Shown here one piece after another: positions 6,177-36,206 of a DNA stretch of 36,206 nucleotides; the first letter of the stretch is position 1; each line of letters starts with the position of its first letter. The notes below the pieces were generated by a model. It ran no database searches, had not been told where the DNA came from, and saw nothing but the letters and a program-made list of their open reading frames with translations. The translations under genes and the position numbers were made by a program. Location of the stretch: positions 1-36,206 of IMG/VR virus record IMGVR_UViG_3300017702_000289; one strand, written 5' to 3'. This DNA comes from a virus (lineage: Duplodnaviria; Caudoviricetes).

Positions 6177-7163
6177 CTACGCCCGATCAACCAACAACCG
6201 CTCTGACGGGTTGCCGGTTGTCTCAAATGGCGACAGGTCAATGCCTGCCGCCTTCACGGCCTTCCTGTCGAGGGAGGCGCGTCCCTTGGTGACCGACAGC
6301 GTCACGTTGATGCCGCCGACGACCGCCTTATTCGTTCCTCGCTGTCTGAGGCCGCGCTTGATGTCCTCGGACAGACCGGCCTTTTCTGTTTTGATGGCGT
6401 CCTCCAAATCCTTCAGCTCCATGTAGCGGAGGGCAGCGACGTCGAAATTGCTGCTTCGGTTGGCCCGCTTCGGTTGGCCCGCTTCTAGATGCACGCCGCA
6501 CGTCTCCCTGAAGGGGCACATTTTGCACTCGTTGCCGCCGTCTCGCCTGCCTTCTCGGTCGAGATTGCGCACGTCTTTCGTGCGTAGGATTTTAGACGAG
6601 CGCCGCGCCATTTTATCGAGGATCGCTCGGTTGCGCGGCACGGGCACCTCGATCAGATCGTGATAGTTCGACGCGTCCATGTAGATCAGCACGCCGGAGA
6701 GGCCGACGCCGTCGGGGCGGTCGATGTGCTGGTCGATCATCTCCATGGCGATCTCCAACTGCGCGACGTGGCCTACCCTCGGCAAGTTCGACTTGTTGGT
6801 GCGGGGGTCGATGGTCTTGAACTCCGGCACGATCCACTCGTCGTCGTACTCGATGACGCCGTCGGGCGTCGAGCTGATCTTGCGCTTCTCATCTTGTAGG
6901 CTGAGCTGGTACTTTCCGGTGTAGCGCAGCGGCACGTTGGCGGCCAGCAGACTGTCGACGAGGAACTTCTCACCGTGCGTGCCGCGCCGGGCGAAGCCCC
7001 AGTCCTGCGGCTCCTCCTTAGCTCCATGCTTCTGATACCACTGGCGGCGTATGCAGCTCAATGCCTCAGACGAGTTGAGGTATTTGTTGCGTTTCCTCGG
7101 GTCGAAGCGTCCAGCGTCGTTGGTGTCTGATCCGATGATCAGTTTCTCCGTAAGAGTTCTCAT
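6177..7163 (-). CDS. Cas4-like PD-(D/E)XK exonuclease
   Basis: N-terminal C.RR.WY, TPDG...EFKT, Q-x3 motif, C-terminal CKMCPF...C (4-Cys Fe-S staple); GAGGAGGAGG RBS gives the start at 7163. Confidence 0.85.
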   Translation of the reverse strand: MRTLTEKLIIGSDTNDAGRFDPRKRNKYLNSSEALSCIRRQWYQKHGAKEEPQDWGFARRGTHGEKFLVDSLLAANVPLRYTGKYQLSLQDEKRKISSTPDGVIEYDDEWIVPEFKTIDPRTNKSNLPRVGHVAQLEIAMEMIDQHIDRPDGVGLSGVLIYMDASNYHDLIEVPVPRNRAILDKMARRSSKILRTKDVRNLDREGRRDGGNECKMCPFRETCGVHLEAGQPKRANRSSNFDVAALRYMELKDLEDAIKTEKAGLSEDIKRGLRQRGTNKAVVGGINVTLSVTKGRASLDRKAVKAAGIDLSPFETTGNPSERLLVDRA

Positions 7164-7342
7164 CGATTCCTCCTCCTCGCGTTGGTTAGGCCCTGTTGCA
7201 GATGGTCGACTAAAATCTGGAGGTACTCGACGTCGAGCGGTCGATCCTCCGTTGCCATGCTCATCATCACCAGCACGCGGCGGAGAGCACGGTCCATCTC
7301 CGAAGGCGGGGTCGTGTCCCAGCGGAACGTCGGGATACTCAC
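7160..7342 (-). CDS. hypothetical protein
   Basis: GTGA overlap with the upstream stop and ATGA overlap with the nuclease start. Confidence 0.55.
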   Translation of the reverse strand: MSIPTFRWDTTPPSEMDRALRRVLVMMSMATEDRPLDVEYLQILVDHLQQGLTNARRRNR

Positions 7343-7697: not shown

Positions 7698-8339
7698 TCA
7701 GCCGCCGTCTAATGGCAACCGTATTTGGCTTGGCGAATCGAGCGCAAGATTTGAAGGCTGACGACGAGTTTCAACTGAGCCACCATCAAATAGTCCCTCC
7801 TGATTGCCCCAAGTGTCCCAGCCCTCTCGCGTCTCGCGCGCAAAAAGTTCTATGTACGGCCCTTCTGCAAGGCGCTCTATTCGATTGTACACCTCAACGG
7901 GCTTACGACTGTGCTCCCGGCGTCGATCGATCAATAATCGCCTAACATCACGCGCCAAGCGTTTGGGCTTCCCCTTGGTCGCCAAAAGACACTGTTCTAC
8001 GTTTGCTCTGGTCCAATAGCCTAGGCCGCAGAAAAAGTCCTTCTCGGAAAGGGAATCAACGTCGACATTCTTATTTGTTTTTGCCCAATAAAACCCAACA
8101 GTCTTATAACTAAATCCCCACGCTTTTATCACATCAATTGCAGACGGCAACAATGGATCTGTCGCCCATAGAAATAATATACAATCTTTATCCGCAATTT
8201 CATTTACAGGAAGATTACATATTGCTTCAATCGTCATGCAATCATAGTGCGAAACTGCATTTCTACCCTCCCCCTTCTTGCTGAAATTCTTAAAGTACCA
8301 AGGGGGATCGGCATAAATCACCGAGTATTTTTTACTCAT
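7698..8339 (-). CDS. MT-A70 family N6-adenine methyltransferase
   Basis: IYADPPW, LFLWAT, WGF.YKT, G.GYWTR.N.E, HSRKP, IELFAR, GWD.WGNQ. Confidence 0.95.
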   Translation of the reverse strand: MSKKYSVIYADPPWYFKNFSKKGEGRNAVSHYDCMTIEAICNLPVNEIADKDCILFLWATDPLLPSAIDVIKAWGFSYKTVGFYWAKTNKNVDVDSLSEKDFFCGLGYWTRANVEQCLLATKGKPKRLARDVRRLLIDRRREHSRKPVEVYNRIERLAEGPYIELFARETREGWDTWGNQEGLFDGGSVETRRQPSNLALDSPSQIRLPLDGG

Positions 8340-9907: not shown

Positions 9908-10434
9908 TTTATTTCTCCTTGCTTGCAGATGTAGTGGAGCCGACCGTCGGCATATTTCCTGACTGCCCACCAAGGGCGACCGGCGGCGTCGAACGTCAAG
10001 GCGTCGTCCTCGACGGCGAGCACGTTGTCGAGGACGATGCCCCGCCATGGGGACGACCATGTCCGCATCTCGATGGATACGATCTCGTCGATGTCGACCC
10101 GCTCTTGGCACGCGTACCAGCCTGACGTGTCGCGCTGACCCATGATGCCGGCGTGTCGGATGAGCAGGGTGCGGGTCAGCTCTCCCCAGCCGGCAGCGTC
10201 TGCCTGCTCGATCCACGGCAGGAAGAGGCCGACCTTGAGGCCGATGCGCACATGCGGCACGCTTTTGTGCCGCCCGTCGCTACAGATGCCGGTCGTGCGG
10301 TCCCCACGGGCGTCGCTGGTAGCCCAGACGAAGTCCTTGGGCCAATCCTCGCTCTGAGGGATGGTCGGCACCAGCGCGCCCTCCAGCAGGATGTACGGCA
10401 GGTGCGCGAGGCTTGTGTGGTGATAGAGGATCAT
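9904..10434 (-). CDS. putative ADP-ribosyltransferase-fold protein
   Basis: LYHHTS..HLP.IL..G.L start and FVWATS strand match the H-type ART pattern of DarT/Tpt1-like proteins. Confidence 0.5.
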   Translation of the reverse strand: MILYHHTSLAHLPYILLEGALVPTIPQSEDWPKDFVWATSDARGDRTTGICSDGRHKSVPHVRIGLKVGLFLPWIEQADAAGWGELTRTLLIRHAGIMGQRDTSGWYACQERVDIDEIVSIEMRTWSSPWRGIVLDNVLAVEDDALTFDAAGRPWWAVRKYADGRLHYICKQGEIK

Positions 10435-11297
10435 GCCGCCTGCTCCATCGCCGCCGCCGGCTGGAGGCCGTCGGTGAAGTCGACGGCTTTCTGGGCGTCC
10501 CGCGCTGCGCGGAAGATGGCTTTTTTATCGGCCTTGATGATGCGCAGCCAGCTGGCGAGGTACTGGGCGTGATCCTCGCGGACCTCGCTCTCGATGCCGA
10601 GCTTGGCGCATGTGATCGAGGCATAGATTTCCGCGACCAACTCCTCTTCGCCGTAGCTCAACTTAGAGCGGTCGATGGTGTCTGTCGCGCCCTTCGTCCA
10701 GTGGCCGACCTCATGCAGGGCGGTGCCATAGTACGAAACCGCGCTGTCGAACTGCTCGAAGGTCGGGAGCTGAATGCGGTGCTGGAGCGGAACATAGTAT
10801 GCTCTATCTCCGCCGTGCTCGATCTTCGCGCCGGTCGCCTTGATGTAGGCGTCGGCGTCGGCACAGCGTGCATCAGTATTCATGGCGTCGGGATCGATGA
10901 CCGGAAAATATTTCTCCGGCAGGCCGTCGATCTGCTCTGCGTTGAAGACGGTGTAGGCGCGCATCAGCGGGATCATCTTATCCTCGCCGGAGACCTTGTC
11001 CTTGATCTTGAGGGGCTTGAAGAAGACGACCGTCGTGCCCTTCTCCCCGCCGCGAACCTGACCGCCGACCGACTTGGCCTGCTTGTAGGTCATCCAGTTC
11101 ACGTTGCTGCGGCCCTGCATGGCGAGGATGATGAGGTTGATACCTTTGTAGTGCTGGCCGGTGGCGCGGGTCGGCAGGCCGCCGCCGAGGGAGGCCCAGC
11201 TCTTCTTCCACGCGCCGGTTCCGGCTTCGAGCTGCGCGATGAGCTGGTCGGTTACGAGCTGCTCAACGTCGATCTTTTTCTTGGTACGTTTTGCCAT
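10431..11297 (-). CDS. ardC: ArdC-like antirestriction protein (ssDNA-binding domain plus zincin metallopeptidase)
   Basis: YKGINL, WMTYKQA...GG.VR.GEKG, Y.VFN..Q, AYY.P..H.IQLP, LHEVGHWT, Y..EELVAE, YL.SW. Confidence 0.92.
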   Translation of the reverse strand: MAKRTKKKIDVEQLVTDQLIAQLEAGTGAWKKSWASLGGGLPTRATGQHYKGINLIILAMQGRSNVNWMTYKQAKSVGGQVRGGEKGTTVVFFKPLKIKDKVSGEDKMIPLMRAYTVFNAEQIDGLPEKYFPVIDPDAMNTDARCADADAYIKATGAKIEHGGDRAYYVPLQHRIQLPTFEQFDSAVSYYGTALHEVGHWTKGATDTIDRSKLSYGEEELVAEIYASITCAKLGIESEVREDHAQYLASWLRIIKADKKAIFRAARDAQKAVDFTDGLQPAAAMEQAA

Positions 11298-11822: not shown

Positions 11823-11851
11823 ATTGTATCAGATACTGATCGATATGTCTA
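11823..11851 (-). promoter_or_regulatory. sigma70-like leftward early promoter with a palindromic site in the spacer
   Basis: TAGACA-N17-TACAAT on the minus strand; ATCAG-ATA-CTGAT at 11828-11840. Confidence 0.7.
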
Positions 11852-12038: not shown

Positions 12039-12084
12039 CATATAAGCAGTCAGCAGCTGATTGCAAGAGAGATCAGCATCTGAT
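12039..12084 (-). promoter_or_regulatory. leftward promoter with two palindromic operator-like sites
   Basis: TTGCAA-N16-TATATG on the minus strand; GTCAG-CAG-CTGAT at 12049-12061 and ATCAG-CAT-CTGAT at 12072-12084. Confidence 0.6.
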
Positions 12085-17862: not shown

Positions 17863-17897
17863 ACTGCGTGTCTAAAGTGTGTTAAGGCGGTAAATCC

Positions 17898-18503
17898 ATG
17901 GATGCTATAATTATATTCAGCCGTGTGAACGGTCATCCGCTGGGGTTCCTTTTGAACAAAAAACGCCGGCACGTCTGGTGCGCCATCAGGGGCGAGCAGT
18001 TCTGGACCGTCTACGATTGGCACGTCGGAATACCGGTGATCTCTGTCGCCGACAGGGACATCGACCTTGCCGCTTTCTACACCGGCAAGGGCTGCGAGGT
18101 CATCGAGATCGAGCGCGGCACCGAGGCCTGTCATGGGCCGTGGATGTGCAACAACTGCGTCGGGCACACCATGGTCATGGCGGCGATCCGCGCACACCTG
18201 ATCTTCACGCCACAGCAGCTGTGGAACCATCTCACGGGGAATAGCATGCGATACCGCGCCAAAAACTTCTTCCGCCGCGCCTGCTACATGCCGGGGTTTG
18301 GCAGCAAGACGCAGGCCGCGCCTCTGCCGCCCCCGCCGGTGCGGGCACCCAAGTCGGAGACGACTATCGCGGCGGATAAGAAACTGGCTGCCGATGAAGT
18401 CGCCCGTCTGGCAGCGCGCAAGAAGTCCGCAGGCGGGGCCACGGCATCGGAGGGAACCCTCCTCGATGATGACGACACAATAGGAGCGGGAGCATTAAAA
18501 TGA
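17898..18503 (+). CDS. permuted papain-like (His before Cys) domain fused to a Pro-rich small virion protein
   Basis: RHVW...YD...NNCV...TP.QL in the N-part; C-part (possible internal ATG at 18246) resembles the next ORF. Confidence 0.55.
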   Translation: MDAIIIFSRVNGHPLGFLLNKKRRHVWCAIRGEQFWTVYDWHVGIPVISVADRDIDLAAFYTGKGCEVIEIERGTEACHGPWMCNNCVGHTMVMAAIRAHLIFTPQQLWNHLTGNSMRYRAKNFFRRACYMPGFGSKTQAAPLPPPPVRAPKSETTIAADKKLAADEVARLAARKKSAGGATASEGTLLDDDDTIGAGALK

Positions 18504-30929: not shown

Positions 30930-33900
30930 ATGGCCGACGGATTTGATTTTGGCACGGCCCCGGAGACGCCGGAAGCGTTGTCTGTAGCACCGGATACGGC
31001 ATCCGACGCCGGGGTCTCTCAGTTCGACCCGCTGCTGCCGCCCGAGATATCCAAGCATCTCAAGAGTTTTGGTTCCGGGGTCGGCAACGACCTTGAAACC
31101 AAAACCCTTGAGATGGCTCCGGCAGCTACGGACGAGCTGCCCGACATCGAGACGGCTACGTTCGACTTCGACGCGCCCCCGCTGCCACCGATAGACCCAG
31201 TGGCGCAACTCAGAGCGAGCCAACAGCTCCAGACACCACAGTTTGACGCCGAGGGCGTACCCGTGCCCGGCAGTATCGCCGAGGAGCGGGGGCTAAAGCA
31301 GGCGGCGGAGAGCCGCGCGGTGATGCAGAACTTCGATCTGACTGCAGACATCGATGGCAATTTGCTGGCGCTCAGCAGGCACGTCGCCGACACCGTTGGC
31401 GGCTTCACCATGGTCGAAGACGAGAACGGTAATCTGGTTAAGCGGTATCTCAGAATGACGCCTGAGATGGTGCAGACCATGCACCCGTCTCAGCTCAAGG
31501 TGATGCTGGAGCGTCAGGACGTCCAGCTCGCGTTGAAGGTCGACAGCGTTGTGCGTAAGCGGCTGGCTGAAGACGCCGAGATGATGGCGATCTTCCGGGG
31601 GGAAATCCCTATCCTGCTGGCAGCCGAGGGGGCGATGGCCACCAGCCAGCGCCTCAAGGGACTAGGCCCCAAAGGGGAGCGGTCGCAGACGCCTTTCCAA
31701 GAGGTCACGGGCCTCGTCGTGGACGACACGATGGGCGTCATCGCGGGTATAGGCAACGCCATCAAGCGCGGCAATCTAATGCAGGGCGCGGCCAAAGACG
31801 TCGCCGACGCATTCACCTTCTTGGAGCTGGGCGAAACCGAAGACGCCGTCCAGCAGCTCATGGAGGCTGCTGCAGCCATGAAGACGGCGGGCGGGCTGAA
31901 GCGGTCCGATCTGGCGAACGAGATGCTCGATCTGATCAAGAAGCTGGACAAGCTGGAGTTCGGTGAGGGCCTCGCTGAGCTGACGGTGATGATCAAGGAG
32001 AACCCCGCCGAGGCCGCTGTTCTGATCAACGAGGTTATGGCAGAGCAAATTCAACCCCTGCTGCTGTCCGCCGCCGCGACTGCAGTTGGAACCCCAGTTG
32101 CCGGCGTCGCTGTCAACATGGCGACGACGTTCGCCCAAGAGCAGTTCGCTTTCTCCGACGAGGCGCTCAAGAACATCAAGGACAAGCACGGCTACGATCT
32201 AAATACAGAGAAAGGTATCCGGGACTTTGTCGCCGACGAGGCGGCGAAGCAAGACTTTCTGGCGTTCGGCGTCAAGCGCGCCATCCCGATCACGGCTGCG
32301 CAGGCGGCCAGCTTCGGGCTGCTGCGTGTGCTGGCCCGCGCCAACGTCGCCCGCACCGTCAAGGTAGCGACGGCGCTGGCCGGCGAGGTCGCCACTGAAG
32401 GTTCCGCTGAATGGCTCGCGCAGATGTGGTCGAAAGGTCACTACCTGCTGAGCGATGTGGTTCTCGAAGCCATGGCGAGCGGTCACCCTGTCACCGTGGG
32501 CCTCGAAGCATATGTGTCCGGCGCGGCTGACCTCAACGACTTCCGGCAGGCGAAGGCGGTCAAGGTCTGGCTGGAGAGCGGCAAGGCCACGTCGGAAGAG
32601 ATCAAAGGCATCCCGACCGAGAAGCTGTCGGCGGCGGCGGACGTGCTGGCCGATAAGCTTAGGGCGGAGGGCATCGAGCGCGTCTTCATACCCGCTGACC
32701 AGCTCGTAGGCTTCGATCAGGACGGCAGTGTCACCGAGACACTCGGCCTGACCAGCGAGGCCGTCAGGCAGGCAGCAGCGGCGGGGCAGGACGTCTCCAT
32801 AGACGCCGCCACCTACATCCGTCACATCCTCGGCGCGGACGGCTTCGATGCACTGCAGCGCCATACCCGGTTCGACGAGGCCGGCATGACCGCCGCCGAG
32901 GCGGAAGCCTACGAAGCCGACGACGTTGGCGGCCAAATTCAAGAGCAGATGCGCCAGCTGGCACTGCAGCGGGTTGGGGTCGGCGTCCATATCGACGAGG
33001 CGTCGCTCACCCAGCTCAACGAGGACAGCGAAAGCATCCGGGGGCAGGTCAGGGACGCGCTGGAGGCGACCGGCGTCTACACCGGTGCCAAGGCCGATCT
33101 ATTCGCCCAGATCACCGCCCAGCGGTACGCGACGCGCGCTGTGCGCCATACTGAGGCCACAGGGCAGCCCGTGGACGCGATGTCGCTGTTCTTGGCTGAC
33201 AATCTACAGGTACAGGGTGACGCCGCTGTGCAGGCCGCTCAGGGCTTCGAGCAGTTTGACCAAGACAACGAAGGACGGGCAGAGGGGGACTTCTCTCCTG
33301 AGCACGTCGATCTCCTTGAGAGCCTAGAGGATGTATCTGTCGATGACGCCTTCTTCAACTTCGACGAGGATTTCGAGGACAAGGCTTTTTGGATCACGCC
33401 GGGGGGTAAGATAGTCGCTGCTGAACGCCCCGGTGTTCACGCGCATCTGGTTCGAGAGATCGCACCTGAGTTGGTCAGGGGTGCATCACAAGACCAGATA
33501 GCTGACAACTTTATGAACGACACAGGGGCCATCCGCTTTGTAGCACTGAATGATGACAGCGGTGCTCCGGCAGAGCTGTTCTTGAAGATGCACGATAAGA
33601 AGTTAACACAGGAGCAACGCCGCACCATAGGGAAGATGGTAAACCAAAGCGCGGATGGCGTGCAGGTTATAGCGGAACGGTTCGATGTGGACAACGGCAC
33701 CGTGGTTTTGTCCGAGCAGTTGAGCGGCAGGGACGCTAAAGGTGCCCTACACGCAGGGAGACGAGGCGAAGGCGCAGTATTTAATCAAGACGCGGAGCAC
33801 AGTCTGGCATCCGCCCAGCGGCTCTTGAAGGACGACATCGCCGCCCTTGGACTGACCGAGGAGCAAGCCGCCAAGATCAGCCCGATCTACCGGCCAGAGG

Positions 33901-36206
33901 TTGTGCCGACCGAGCGGATGGCGAGCAACCAAGATGCCGCCCTGTGGCTGGAGGATCAGTTCGAGGGCGAAGCTATAACCGATCACACGACGGTGCTGAC
34001 GACCGAGCAGGTCGAGGAGATTTCCACGATCATGGCGGCGGAGGCGCAGCTCGCTCTTGAGAGCACGGGGAGCGCGCTCGACTGGTATTCCGGTGCCTTG
34101 ACCCGTGCGCTCAATGTCGCGCAAGTGAAGTACCCGATGCTGGCCGACGACAGCTCCGCAAAACAAGCCGGGTTTGGGACTGCCTCCAACGCTCGGTTCG
34201 CCTTCACCTACATTATGGCAGTCACATCGCAGAACCTCGATGTCGCCGCCAACTCGGTCGCGACCGATAAGGCGTTTGAGCAGATGGTCGACCGCGTCCA
34301 GAACGGCGTGCATAGCATGGACCGCGCGTGGGGGACCGGCGACAAACAAGAAGCCATGGGCGACAACTTCGATAAGTTCGGACCCATGATCGAGGCGATG
34401 CCCGGCGAGAGCTTCCCCGACAAACTGGAGGCCCTCGACGCGCTGTTCCGGCAGAAGAAGACCGTCGGCGAGTGGGTCAAGGACATGAAAGCCGCCGGTG
34501 TTCCGTACAATGCGCCGGGGCAAACGAACAAGGACGCCATCGTCTATGGCTCCTCGGCCCTCGGCCCGAAGATCGGCAACGGCTTCTGGCAGAACTTGAA
34601 CGGCAACTTCGAGCCGATGACCATCGATTTGTGGATGCGCCGTACATGGGGGCGCTATGTCGGCGCAAGTATCGGGAACCCCGGTGCGCTGCCGGGCCAG
34701 CGGGCGCGGCTGAAGGAAGCACTGAAGCGCAGCAGGTCGAAGCAGCAGGGCGACCCGGATCATATTGCCGAGGCGAAGAGCCACGTCGAGTTCCTGCAGG
34801 ATTATCTGGCCACGGTGGAGAAGAAGCCGATTGCCGAGTTCGGCACCAAGAAGGCGCGGACTGCAGAGGTTAAGCGGCTCAAGGCTCAGATCAAGGTGGG
34901 TATAGAGGTCGTCGCCGATCTGGAGAACATCAAAGCCCCGGAAAGTTACAAGGCGGCATACGACAATGATAACGTGGCGCTGGTCGCCTACAGCAAGCGC
35001 ATACTGACCGTCTGGGAAAAAGAGTACGCCCGGCTCAGCAAGAAGACCAAGGGCAAGGTCGCCAGCACGCTGACGCCGACGTGGGCGCGGGCGGCCAAGA
35101 CGGTGATCACCAACTTGGCCAAGCCCCTCGATCAGGTGGCAAACGGGGCGCAGCGCAAGCAGATCGAAGCGGTTGGCGCGCGCGCTCTTGAGAAGCTGTC
35201 GGCGCGCGGCATCGACGTCACGACCGCCGATTTGCAGGCCTTGCTCTGGTATCCTGAGAAGGATTTGTGGGGTGCGCTGACGAAAGAATTAGAGACAGAT
35301 ACTGATAATATTGCTATAATTCCACCTAACCCTTTGAACGAGAGTTACGACACTGCGTTCGGACGCATACTGAGGAGCCAAGGACATGACGTCCAAGGAG
35401 CTGAAGGAGATACAGGCGGAGGAGCTGGAGGCGGAACCGTCTCTGGACAAGATGCTCGACCTCAAGAACCCACAGGTTCTGAAGGGGCTGGGCAAGCTGG
35501 CCGCGCAGGCGCTGAAGGAGCAGCAGAAGACGTAGGCTTCGAGCAGGCGTCTACTTTAGCCGTTGACGAGCAGGGTACGCCTCTAGTCGGGTTCCACGGC
35601 ACCGCCGCAGATATCCAGTCATTTAAACCTAGCTTAAATGGTAACCTCGGACCGGGATTTTACGTCACGCTCGACGCGGAAGCCGCTAACTTGTTTGCAG
35701 AACGAGCGGCGCTGAGGGACGACGCCGACACAGGTGCCAACGTATTACCGCTGAATATCGCCGCGTCCAACATCCTCGACACAGGCAATCTGTCAGCCGA
35801 AGACATCGCTGCATTACAGGCTGCTATACCGGACAGCCTACAGGGATGGCGGGATCAGTATCCCAGTTATGCCGCCTTCGAGGACGGAAAGTTCGAGGAC
35901 AGTGGTATCGAGGGAGACCTTGAACGGTTCCATGAAGACTTGTCCAAAGGGGGGTTCAACCCCGGCAGGCTGGCCATATTCCTTGGCCTAGAGGGTCTGG
36001 ACGAGAGCGTGACCATCATGGGAGAGGTGCTTAATGCTGCTGGCTACGACGGCGTATCCAGACGCAGTGATGCTTTGAGAGGAAAGCCAGCATTTACAGA
36101 GATTGCCGTCTATAAGGCATCGCAATTAAAATCTGCCTTCAACAACGCACCTACCACGACAAGCGACAACATCTTAGAGCAAACCGGGCCAGCCGCCCAG
36201 CCGCGC
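30930..36206 (+). CDS. large polyvalent internal virion protein (more than 1759 aa, 3' end outside window)
   Basis: ATG at 30930 directly after the upstream TAG; translated by hand with no stop to 36206; helical/hydrophobic N-half followed by effector-like modules. Confidence 0.9.
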   Translation, partial: MADGFDFGTAPETPEALSVAPDTASDAGVSQFDPLLPPEISKHLKSFGSGVGNDLETKTLEMAPAATDELPDIETATFDFDAPPLPPIDPVAQLRASQQLQTPQFDAEGVPVPGSIAEERGLKQAAESRAVMQNFDLTADIDGNLLALSRHVADTVGGFTMVEDENGNLVKRYLRMTPEMVQTMHPSQLKVMLERQDVQLALKVDSVVRKRLAEDAEMMAIFRGEIPILLAAEGAMATSQRLKGLGPKGERSQTPFQEVTGLVVDDTMGVIAGIGNAIKRGNLMQGAAKDVADAFTFLELGETEDAVQQLMEAAAAMKTAGGLKRSDLANEMLDLIKKLDKLEFGEGLAELTVMIKENPAEAAVLINEVMAEQIQPLLLSAAATAVGTPVAGVAVNMATTFAQEQFAFSDEALKNIKDKHGYDLNTEKGIRDFVADEAAKQDFLAFGVKRAIPITAAQAASFGLLRVLARANVARTVKVATALAGEVATEGSAEWLAQMWSKGHYLLSDVVLEAMASGHPVTVGLEAYVSGAADLNDFRQAKAVKVWLESGKATSEEIKGIPTEKLSAAADVLADKLRAEGIERVFIPADQLVGFDQDGSVTETLGLTSEAVRQAAAAGQDVSIDAATYIRHILGADGFDALQRHTRFDEAGMTAAEAEAYEADDVGGQIQEQMRQLALQRVGVGVHIDEASLTQLNEDSESIRGQVRDALEATGVYTGAKADLFAQITAQRYATRAVRHTEATGQPVDAMSLFLADNLQVQGDAAVQAAQGFEQFDQDNEGRAEGDFSPEHVDLLESLEDVSVDDAFFNFDEDFEDKAFWITPGGKIVAAERPGVHAHLVREIAPELVRGASQDQIADNFMNDTGAIRFVALNDDSGAPAELFLKMHDKKLTQEQRRTIGKMVNQSADGVQVIAERFDVDNGTVVLSEQLSGRDAKGALHAGRRGEGAVFNQDAEHSLASAQRLLKDDIAALGLTEEQAAKISPIYRPEVVPTERMASNQDAALWLEDQFEGEAITDHTTVLTTEQVEEISTIMAAEAQLALESTGSALDWYSGALTRALNVAQVKYPMLADDSSAKQAGFGTASNARFAFTYIMAVTSQNLDVAANSVATDKAFEQMVDRVQNGVHSMDRAWGTGDKQEAMGDNFDKFGPMIEAMPGESFPDKLEALDALFRQKKTVGEWVKDMKAAGVPYNAPGQTNKDAIVYGSSALGPKIGNGFWQNLNGNFEPMTIDLWMRRTWGRYVGASIGNPGALPGQRARLKEALKRSRSKQQGDPDHIAEAKSHVEFLQDYLATVEKKPIAEFGTKKARTAEVKRLKAQIKVGIEVVADLENIKAPESYKAAYDNDNVALVAYSKRILTVWEKEYARLSKKTKGKVASTLTPTWARAAKTVITNLAKPLDQVANGAQRKQIEAVGARALEKLSARGIDVTTADLQALLWYPEKDLWGALTKELETDTDNIAIIPPNPLNESYDTAFGRILRSQGHDVQGAEGDTGGGAGGGTVSGQDARPQEPTGSEGAGQAGRAGAEGAAEDVGFEQASTLAVDEQGTPLVGFHGTAADIQSFKPSLNGNLGPGFYVTLDAEAANLFAERAALRDDADTGANVLPLNIAASNILDTGNLSAEDIAALQAAIPDSLQGWRDQYPSYAAFEDGKFEDSGIEGDLERFHEDLSKGGFNPGRLAIFLGLEGLDESVTIMGEVLNAAGYDGVSRRSDALRGKPAFTEIAVYKASQLKSAFNNAPTTTSDNILEQTGPAAQPR
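33990..35280 (+). other. HhH-GPD glycosylase-like domain within the large virion protein
   Basis: A.DWY, AVTSQN..V..N, GPKIGNGFWQNLNGNFEPMTIDLWMRR, ADLQALLWYPEK. Confidence 0.55.
35292..35320 (+). promoter_or_regulatory. intragenic sigma70-like promoter with operator-like site
   Basis: GAGACA-N17-TATAAT with extended TGn; AT-rich patch; GACAG-ATA-CTGAT at 35294-35306. Confidence 0.65.
35386..35535 (+). CDS. nested +1-frame 49-aa ORF inside the large virion gene
   Basis: GAGGAG..AAGGA RBS; MTSKELKEIQAEELEAEPSLDKMLDLKNPQVLKGLGKLAAQALKEQQKT; GC3-rich codons in this frame while the host frame reads as a Gly-rich linker. Confidence 0.7.
   Translation: MTSKELKEIQAEELEAEPSLDKMLDLKNPQVLKGLGKLAAQALKEQQKT
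35562..36182 (+). other. ART-PolyVal-like ADP-ribosyltransferase domain within the large virion protein
   Basis: VDEQGTPLVGFHGT, LGPGFYVT, GANVLPL.I, AGYDGV, EIAVY...QLKS. Confidence 0.8.

Follow-up and report, generated by a model that had tools for sequence, protein, structure and literature searches.

The nested gene and its setting

The window analysed here was the whole virus record IMGVR_UViG_3300017702_000289 (Duplodnaviria; Caudoviricetes), 36,206 bases from a short-tailed phage with a BPP-1/T7-like morphogenesis module. Its last gene encodes a giant polyvalent protein (hereafter the host gene and host protein), and within this gene, directly behind a helix-hairpin-helix (HhH-GPD) glycosylase-like domain, a short open reading frame (ORF) was found in the +1 frame (Table 1). 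The nested ORF opened with the ATG at 35386, ran for 49 codons and closed with TAG at 35533-35535, immediately ahead of the codons for GFEQ, a motif that marks a module junction of the host protein. A first-pass annotation of this DNA had proposed a hidden transcription unit here, and the positions that it gave for promoter, ribosome-binding site, ATG, 49-codon ORF and stop were all reproduced from the sequence. The coincidence of the stop with the GFEQ junction was exact in the window and loose in relatives, in which the peptides were 49-97 amino acids (aa) long.

Over positions 35386-35532 the G+C content at third codon positions (GC3) was 0.90 in the nested frame and 0.27 in the host frame, compared with 0.76 for the genome. 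Codon log-odds computed on the same bases were +0.45 for the nested frame and -0.26 for the host frame, in agreement with the earlier remark that the nested frame uses the genome's usual G/C-ending codons. Along the host gene the +1 frame scored as coding at the nested ORF alone. Eight alternative-frame ATG ORFs of at least 30 codons were present in the host gene; only the nested ORF had both a strong Shine-Dalgarno (SD) sequence (-8.4) and high GC3.

Table 1. Features at the nested-gene locus and in the early control region, in window coordinates
Feature	Position	Strand	Remarks
Host gene, giant polyvalent protein of at least 1759 aa	30930..36206	+	Cut by contig end; last gene of internal-virion module
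HhH-GPD glycosylase-like domain	33834..35384	+	Host aa 969-1485; Lys at 34569 (K1214), Asp at 34626 (D1233)
Sigma-70-like promoter sequence with TG extension	35292..35320	+	This lineage only
Imperfect copy of the early-region palindrome ATCAG-N3-CTGAT over the -35 box	35294..35306	+	Possible operator; post hoc, moderate
Ribosome-binding site	35372..35384	+	GAGGAG 35372-35377 plus AAGGA 35380-35384
Nested +1-frame gene, 49 aa	35386..35535	+	Acidic N-terminal half, EPSL motif, amphipathic C-terminal helix
ART-PolyVal domain	35565..36155	+	Next module after the nested gene; without linkage to the peptide
Intergenic promoter-like site of the same build (xAGACA-17-TGn-TAnAAT)	11823..11851	-	Perfect palindrome at 11828-11840
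Two further palindrome copies	12049..12084	.	12049-12061 (one mismatch), 12072-12084 (perfect); divergent control region

Conservation and selection in related loci

Homologues of the glycosylase-like domain were collected from viral and metagenome contigs, giving 194 loci including the window. Two loci without an anchor and ten that were too short were dropped, and the rest were collapsed to 100 at 85% identity and aligned by their offset from the QAxxWYPE motif of the domain (the anchor). Stops in the +1 frame occurred at 3.5-6.9% per 10-codon bin upstream, within the domain, and were absent from all 1000 codons lying at offsets 60-69 past the anchor; such stops in homologues had been named in the first-pass annotation as evidence that would tell against a nested gene. 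No comparable stop-free gap was found behind the anchor in the +2 frame of the same loci. A +1 ORF of at least 30 codons stood at the nested position in 97 of the 100 loci, a count that includes at least two chance frames (loci L049 and L173) and comes from loci that are mutually related, not independent; 86 of the 100 had the ORF together with an SD sequence. When the same rule was applied at seven control positions inside the domain, 24-39 loci per 100 had an ORF and 11-18 had one with an SD, and in the +2 frame at the nested position the corresponding numbers were 4 and 1. An independent set taken from genome contigs gave 27/30 with the ORF and 23/30 with an SD as well. Among the close loci, an SD at -4 kcal or stronger was found in 21/21.

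The ratio of nonsynonymous to synonymous substitution rates (dN/dS) was calculated for 12 of these 21 close loci, those that were colinear without gaps. Over the nested ORF it was 0.20 in the nested frame and 2.32 in the host linker frame, and the upstream domain gave the mirror image, with 0.09 in the host frame and 1.85 in the +1 frame. Proportions of nonsynonymous and synonymous differences (pN/pS) agreed in two other clades (nested 0.48 versus host 1.69; nested 0.51 versus host 1.64), and the peptide gene had a pN/pS of 0.51 in seven loci whose host gene had already stopped. The SAQ clade counted against this pattern, with 0.80 in the nested and 1.26 in the host frame, from an alignment in which 3 of 13 rows were misaligned. 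Judged by these sequence comparisons, the +1 ORF at 35386-35535 is a real gene under purifying selection with its own SD and start, as the earlier suggestion of selection on the nested frame implied. The dN/dS and pN/pS values of the two frames further indicate that the Gly-rich linker of the host protein is a shadow cast by the peptide gene. The domain was present in three GenBank records, including that of the cultured Limnohabitans phage DC33, all of which had the nested ORF and left it unannotated; in DC33 the ORF lies at 27781-27566 on the minus strand and encodes 71 aa. The DC33 record (PQ492659.1) is placed in the Inoviridae by GenBank taxonomy; the available text of the DC33 paper shows a tailed icosahedral phage (PMC12195039).

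The glycosylase-like domain

An AlphaFold2 model of the domain built with 100 sequences reached a predicted local distance difference test score (pLDDT) of 95.9. The top eight VIA matches of this model were Tm1821 Ogg, two queuine-salvage hydrolases, ROS1, MagIII, MIG, NTHL1 and MutYX, with Z of 8.8-10.0, a root-mean-square deviation of about 4 and 176-225 aligned residues. All eight were HhH-fold glycosylases or the related queuine-salvage hydrolase, and the earlier description of the upstream module as HhH-GPD-like was upheld at the level of the model. A DNA glycosylase/AP-lyase domain with a two-domain helical fold of the HhH-GPD type is thus predicted, from matches that are middling but consistent. 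In domain numbering, K246 (LGPKIG) and D265 (TIDLW), 19 residues apart, were present in 118/118 homologues covering the region. Both were also present in 100/100 loci, a set retrieved with a DNA search pattern that included the Lys but not the Asp. The spacing of 19 is the same as that of K249 and D268 in OGG1 (PMC9638937, available text). Q468 and W472, likewise invariant, may be the counterparts of Q315 and F319, residues of the OGG1 pocket that are named in the title of a reference in that article.

Weak matches to DUF7178 (PF23802) were obtained for 31 of 100 homologues (best E 1e-5), and atlas neighbours of the domain carry DUF7178. The window domain had no DUF7178 match, and the homologue matches that were scored reached 22 and 20 bits, under the 27-bit cut-off; we regard the domain as a distant relative of DUF7178 lying below that cut-off, differing from it in that the window domain goes unmatched and its homologues match only weakly. 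The name DUF7178 was not found in the literature searched. Sequence searches with the domain in PDB, PHROGs, NCBIfam and PADLOC returned nothing useful, and it had no sequence match to any solved enzyme.

Linkage of the peptide and its gene arrangements

The module following the peptide was ART-like in only 2 of 93 loci, and the next modules of 77 loci fell into 33 clusters. Since ART came next in so few loci, the peptide is, on the evidence of these gene orders, the partner of the glycosylase-like domain and not of ART. Viral contigs found with the peptide also had the domain in 9/9 cases, and the position of the nested gene was fixed across domains only 22-35% identical. The earlier idea of a partner for the injected effector was narrowed to the upstream HhH-like domain (9/9 contigs), to the exclusion of ART (2/93).

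The arrangement of the pair varied. The domain, internal in the window, ended within 130 aa of the protein end in 31 of 117 homologues. Where the pair lay at the C-terminus of giant proteins, the small gene overlapped the host stop, and in 11 of the 100 loci the host stop fell before or inside the peptide gene. The pair also followed portal fusions (PF06381), among them locus L151, in which the peptide gene was in the +2 frame and ATGA-coupled, as it was in L079. Pararhizobium sp. BT-229 and Mesorhizobium sp. SP-1A are examples with stand-alone genes for the pair. In L173 the domain had a peptide homologue fused to it in frame (E 4e-4, 15.9 bits; 0/1000 shuffles above 5.4 bits). The proposal that domain and peptide travel as one cassette was supported by all these forms: inside ejection proteins, behind portal fusions, as stand-alone genes and, once, as a fusion. 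The peptide is nevertheless not always required, to judge from the sequences, because L049, L155 and L183 have no recognisable peptide and keep both Lys and Asp.

Two side observations concern the stand-alone genes. In Mesorhizobium sp. SP-1A (L222, 5773-7432) the domain gene was broken shortly before its last helix and the peptide gene was intact; the break may be real or a sequencing error. The rhizobial stand-alone domain genes L203, L222, L136 and L143 shared neighbours (RNA-ligase-like and DprA-like by eye), which suggests a large mobile element or phage-like replicon.

The peptides formed at least six weakly related groups (EPSL, IEPHE, YAPW, SAQ, HSP and PYQ), several of which were joined by profile matches. 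They shared a common plan, a Pro- or Ala-containing motif followed by acidic residues and then an amphipathic helix, and specific residues were conserved. Peptide clusters tracked the domain tree, an agreement that linkage alone can explain. The structure predicted for the peptide had three short helices and no core of its own (pLDDT 85; predicted template modelling score 0.44). Among 90 peptides, 70% were net acidic. The window peptide had no match in Pfam, PHROG or the atlas, and its best VIA Z was 4.0; the eight relatives in the protein database were all short and members of the same family. Many SAQ-group peptides had a second conserved C-terminal motif ending in AFGF, AFGG or AFGA (L194 at 7109-7324, L061, L094, L152, L161, L170, L211-L213 and L217).

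The internal promoter-like site

The promoter-like site ahead of the nested gene was made up of GAGACA (35292-35297), a 17-nt spacer, TGC and TATAAT (35315-35320). A plain promoter scan over 18 kb found 5 sites with 4.7 expected. When the TG extension was scored, only two sites in 36 kb reached 11 points, this one and 11851-11823 on the minus strand, and none of 300 synonymous shuffles of the host gene gave any 11-point site. The AT-rich patch at the promoter was the second richest 30-mer of the window. The site coincided with the loss of residues kept in relatives, DEDGxP having become DTDNIA (Gly kept in 19/20, Pro in 18/20). A near-identical phage differed from the window at 14 positions in 35199-35384, none of them in 35242-35361. 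The promoter was found in 0/20 close loci, whose best scores were 5-9 versus 11 in the window. We lean, by a narrow measure, towards a working promoter at 35292-35320 that is young and confined to this lineage. The first-pass annotation had named conservation of an internal TATAAT, a ribosome-binding site and the +1 ORF in homologues as a check; the last two were conserved (86/100 and 97/100), and the promoter, although one of the two best sites of the genome and absent from all shuffles, is not supported as a family trait. Expression independent of late transcription, which had also been claimed, could by the same count apply to this lineage alone.

In the early control region the palindrome ATCAG-N3-CTGAT occurred three times. 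The site at 35294-35306 was a two-mismatch copy that had an exact 11-mer in common with the copy in the early promoter. Six of 892 control windows matched equally well, and a matrix from the three early sites ranked 35294-35306 seventh with the core or tenth with flanks. It might be an operator of an early-region regulator, a tentative assignment for which this resemblance is suggestive only. No regulator gene for the palindrome was identified in the contig, and the palindrome was found in 1 of 11 related records.

Other searches for control signals gave little. No repeated phage-specific motif ahead of the nested gene rose above background in nine related contigs. Promoter scores in the 135 nt before the start averaged 7.05 versus 6.72 in shuffles, with 5 of 85 loci individually high, a weak sign of a family-wide promoter. 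A family-wide promoter in the codons of the W-Y-P motif (TAT in 90/99 versus 41 expected) was rejected when context-matched tyrosines were also TAT in 20/25. The palindrome GGTACC was depleted (26 versus 221 and 140), and the TAT excess is mostly due to this avoidance of a restriction site; strong avoidance of both GGTACC and TCCGGA was seen throughout the 100 loci. A Fur box in the AT-rich patch was rejected as well, its 13/19 matches to the consensus being equalled at four other sites. A further promoter-like sequence, TGCTATAAT, was noted at 17883-17913, at the start of the structural module.

Genome neighbourhood

The morphogenesis genes were ordered portal, Bbp19- and Bbp16-like genes, GP7 capsid, nozzle, GNAT, gp14-like internal protein and a 708-aa protein, followed by the host gene. 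The sole Pfam match in the host protein was ART-PolyVal at aa 1546-1742 (47.9 bits; cut-off 31.2). Because of this match we class the host protein as a phage polyvalent protein, large and built of disparate modules including ART-PolyVal, and encoded in the virion module. The position of the gene suggests an ejection protein that would be packaged and injected. Relatives carried LPD22, LPD38, InPase and Kinase-PolyVal, and the window genome had an ArdC/MPTase gene (ArdC-N plus MPTase-PolyVal, 10431-11297, minus strand). F/L-E/N-Q motifs marked module junctions of the host protein at 33246, 33780, 35538 and 36174 and may be processing or recombination marks. Between the GFEQ and VFNQ motifs at 33246-33780 lay a further module of about 180 aa with lower GC3 and no match in Pfam or PHROG. 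An MT-A70 methyltransferase gene at 7698-8339 (minus strand) was found in 0/9 related, mostly partial, contigs.

Interpretation and alternatives

The peptide probably binds the glycosylase-like domain, and we give an even chance to its being the cognate inhibitor of that domain, made from the late mRNA. Ribosomes would start internally on this mRNA, and enzyme and partner would thereby be made together. By wrapping onto the domain, the peptide would keep it away from DNA during synthesis of the giant protein, which would protect replicating phage DNA; once packaged and ejected, the enzyme would be released to cut a modified or damaged base in the DNA of the host or of a rival phage. The pair probably began as an ordinary two-gene cassette, with modules later fused behind the domain turning the partner's coding sequence into a "linker". 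In this lineage alone a promoter apparently arose upstream, which would let the peptide be made apart from late transcription. Taken to its full extent, this account would imply an undescribed HhH family: an injected glycosylase acting on modified bases, with its inhibitor gene hidden out of frame and the cassette slotted into the middle of polyvalent proteins, whose linkers would be shadows of immunity genes. In this lineage a promoter and operator would have evolved within coding sequence, with conserved residues sacrificed, and have tied the inhibitor to early control. We consider that full version doubtful. The interpretation offered in the first-pass annotation was, overall, partly supported.

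Several observations weigh against an inhibitor of a glycosylase. Foldseek with the domain model found nothing in PDB, its only relatives being in viral polyvalent proteins, and a fold Z of 9-10 is middling for a helical protein. The match of catalytic residues to glycosylases rests on spacing and conservation, not on superposition. The in-frame fusion in L173 is no less compatible with an accessory subunit than with an inhibitor, and the three loci that keep Lys and Asp without a recognisable peptide are joined by L219, which also has none. Physical linkage alone explains the co-inheritance. With 17.7% D/E versus 13.3% K/R, the peptides are no more than mildly acidic, which is weak for a DNA mimic.

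An accessory subunit, in which the peptide would be a folding chaperone, activator or specificity piece seated on the domain, is unlikely but draws on more than the L173 fusion: the peptide has no core of its own, and L183 and L219, which have no +1 gene, show a helical-looking host-frame segment at that place, although peptide profiles miss it. Against this, the domain is predicted to fold confidently alone (pLDDT 95.9), the peptide is lost completely in L049 and L155, and the peptides, unlike the invariant active site, have diverged into six or more weakly related groups. Immunity proteins tend to diverge. The proximity of the nested stop to a junction motif would suit a small gene that serves synthesis or assembly of the giant protein (translation control, junction processing or packaging) instead of the active site; such a role is decidedly unlikely, as the gene is kept where the domain stands alone or ends the protein, with no giant protein to process, and specific peptide residues are conserved. 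Very unlikely, too, is an independent small gene, acting for instance on a protein of the host cell, that hitchhikes with the module and is brought here under early or repressor control by its own promoter. The promoter and palindrome do resemble the early control region and the gene is dispensable in a few loci, but it was never found without the domain (9/9), its position is fixed across strongly diverged domains, and the promoter is absent from 20 relatives.

Ribosomal frameshifting, by which the +1 frame would supply an alternative C-terminus and a shortened domain-peptide fusion, would accommodate the natural fusion in L173 and the weak SD of the IEPHE clade. It is highly improbable: SD and ATG were present in 21/21 close loci, often with a +1 stop just four codons before the ATG, the +2 ATGA-coupled form occurs in L079 and L151, and no common slippery site was seen by eye. 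The peptide as immunity protein of the downstream ART domain, suggested by its place directly before ART-PolyVal in the window, is largely refuted, given that ART follows in 2/93 loci and that the next module is a different one in close relatives whose peptides are 60-80% identical. Just as little credence is due to there being no gene at all and the open frame being a by-product of a Gly/Ala/Arg-rich linker; GC-rich DNA does give long alternative frames, as the controls showed (24-39/100), but the dN/dS pattern, the conserved SD and the conservation where the host frame had stopped all speak for a gene.

Relation to known systems

Lambda Rz1 is nested in Rz and is the partner of the product of its host gene. 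In phiX174, E is nested in D as a gene within a gene in another frame (PMC8227390, available text). The pair described here resembles both in that a second protein comes from another frame inside a gene, and differs in that the host frame is degenerate and the pair also occurs un-nested, partly overlapped and fused. Among MuF polymorphic toxins, a small ORF without a known domain lay directly downstream in 89.4% of 191 toxin genes (PMC5576092, available text). As in that system, a phage virion-module protein carries an enzyme and a small ORF directly after it that is inherited with the enzyme domain; by our reading the two differ in that no MuF domain was matched here, the enzyme is usually internal and the partner gene lies in the +1 frame of the same gene. 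The giant multi-module protein with ART-PolyVal is like the polyvalent proteins of Iyer et al. 2017 (PMC5512222). The main text of that paper, as available, contains neither "glycosylase" nor "overlap" nor "linker", and it does not describe nested partner genes or call this domain a glycosylase; its supplements may list the domain under another name.

In its predicted fold, the HhH lysine, the Asp 19 residues later and the invariant Gln and Trp on the C-terminal helix, the domain is like the bifunctional HhH-GPD glycosylases OGG1, OGG2/Tm1821, AGOG and EndoIII and the antiphage Dag glycosylases (PMC9638937; bioRxiv 10.1101/2025.10.29.685425; available text of each). It is unlike HhH-GPD glycosylases in its length of 517 aa with a long helical insertion and in being phage-borne, fused into virion proteins and provided with a dedicated small partner. 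HhH glycosylases such as Dag are described in the available text as host-side weapons against modified DNA (bioRxiv 10.1101/2025.10.29.685425). The domain-peptide pair was not described in the literature searched, including the available texts of a jumbo-phage review (PMC7824862), PMC8227390 and the DC33 paper (PMC12195039). What is added here is the range of architectures, the in-frame fusion, the exclusion of ART and the lineage-specific promoter.

Widespread as they are, polyvalent ejection proteins are read as single ORFs with floppy linkers; at this locus the linker is a second gene, one that goes with the enzyme preceding it. With DC33, a cultured phage is available in which the question can be put to the test. 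If the peptide is an inhibitor, it would explain why production of a DNA-cutting module leaves the phage's own genome unharmed and would offer a way to clone and assay such modules. It would also point to glycosylases, so far described as host defences, as weapons on the side of the phage.

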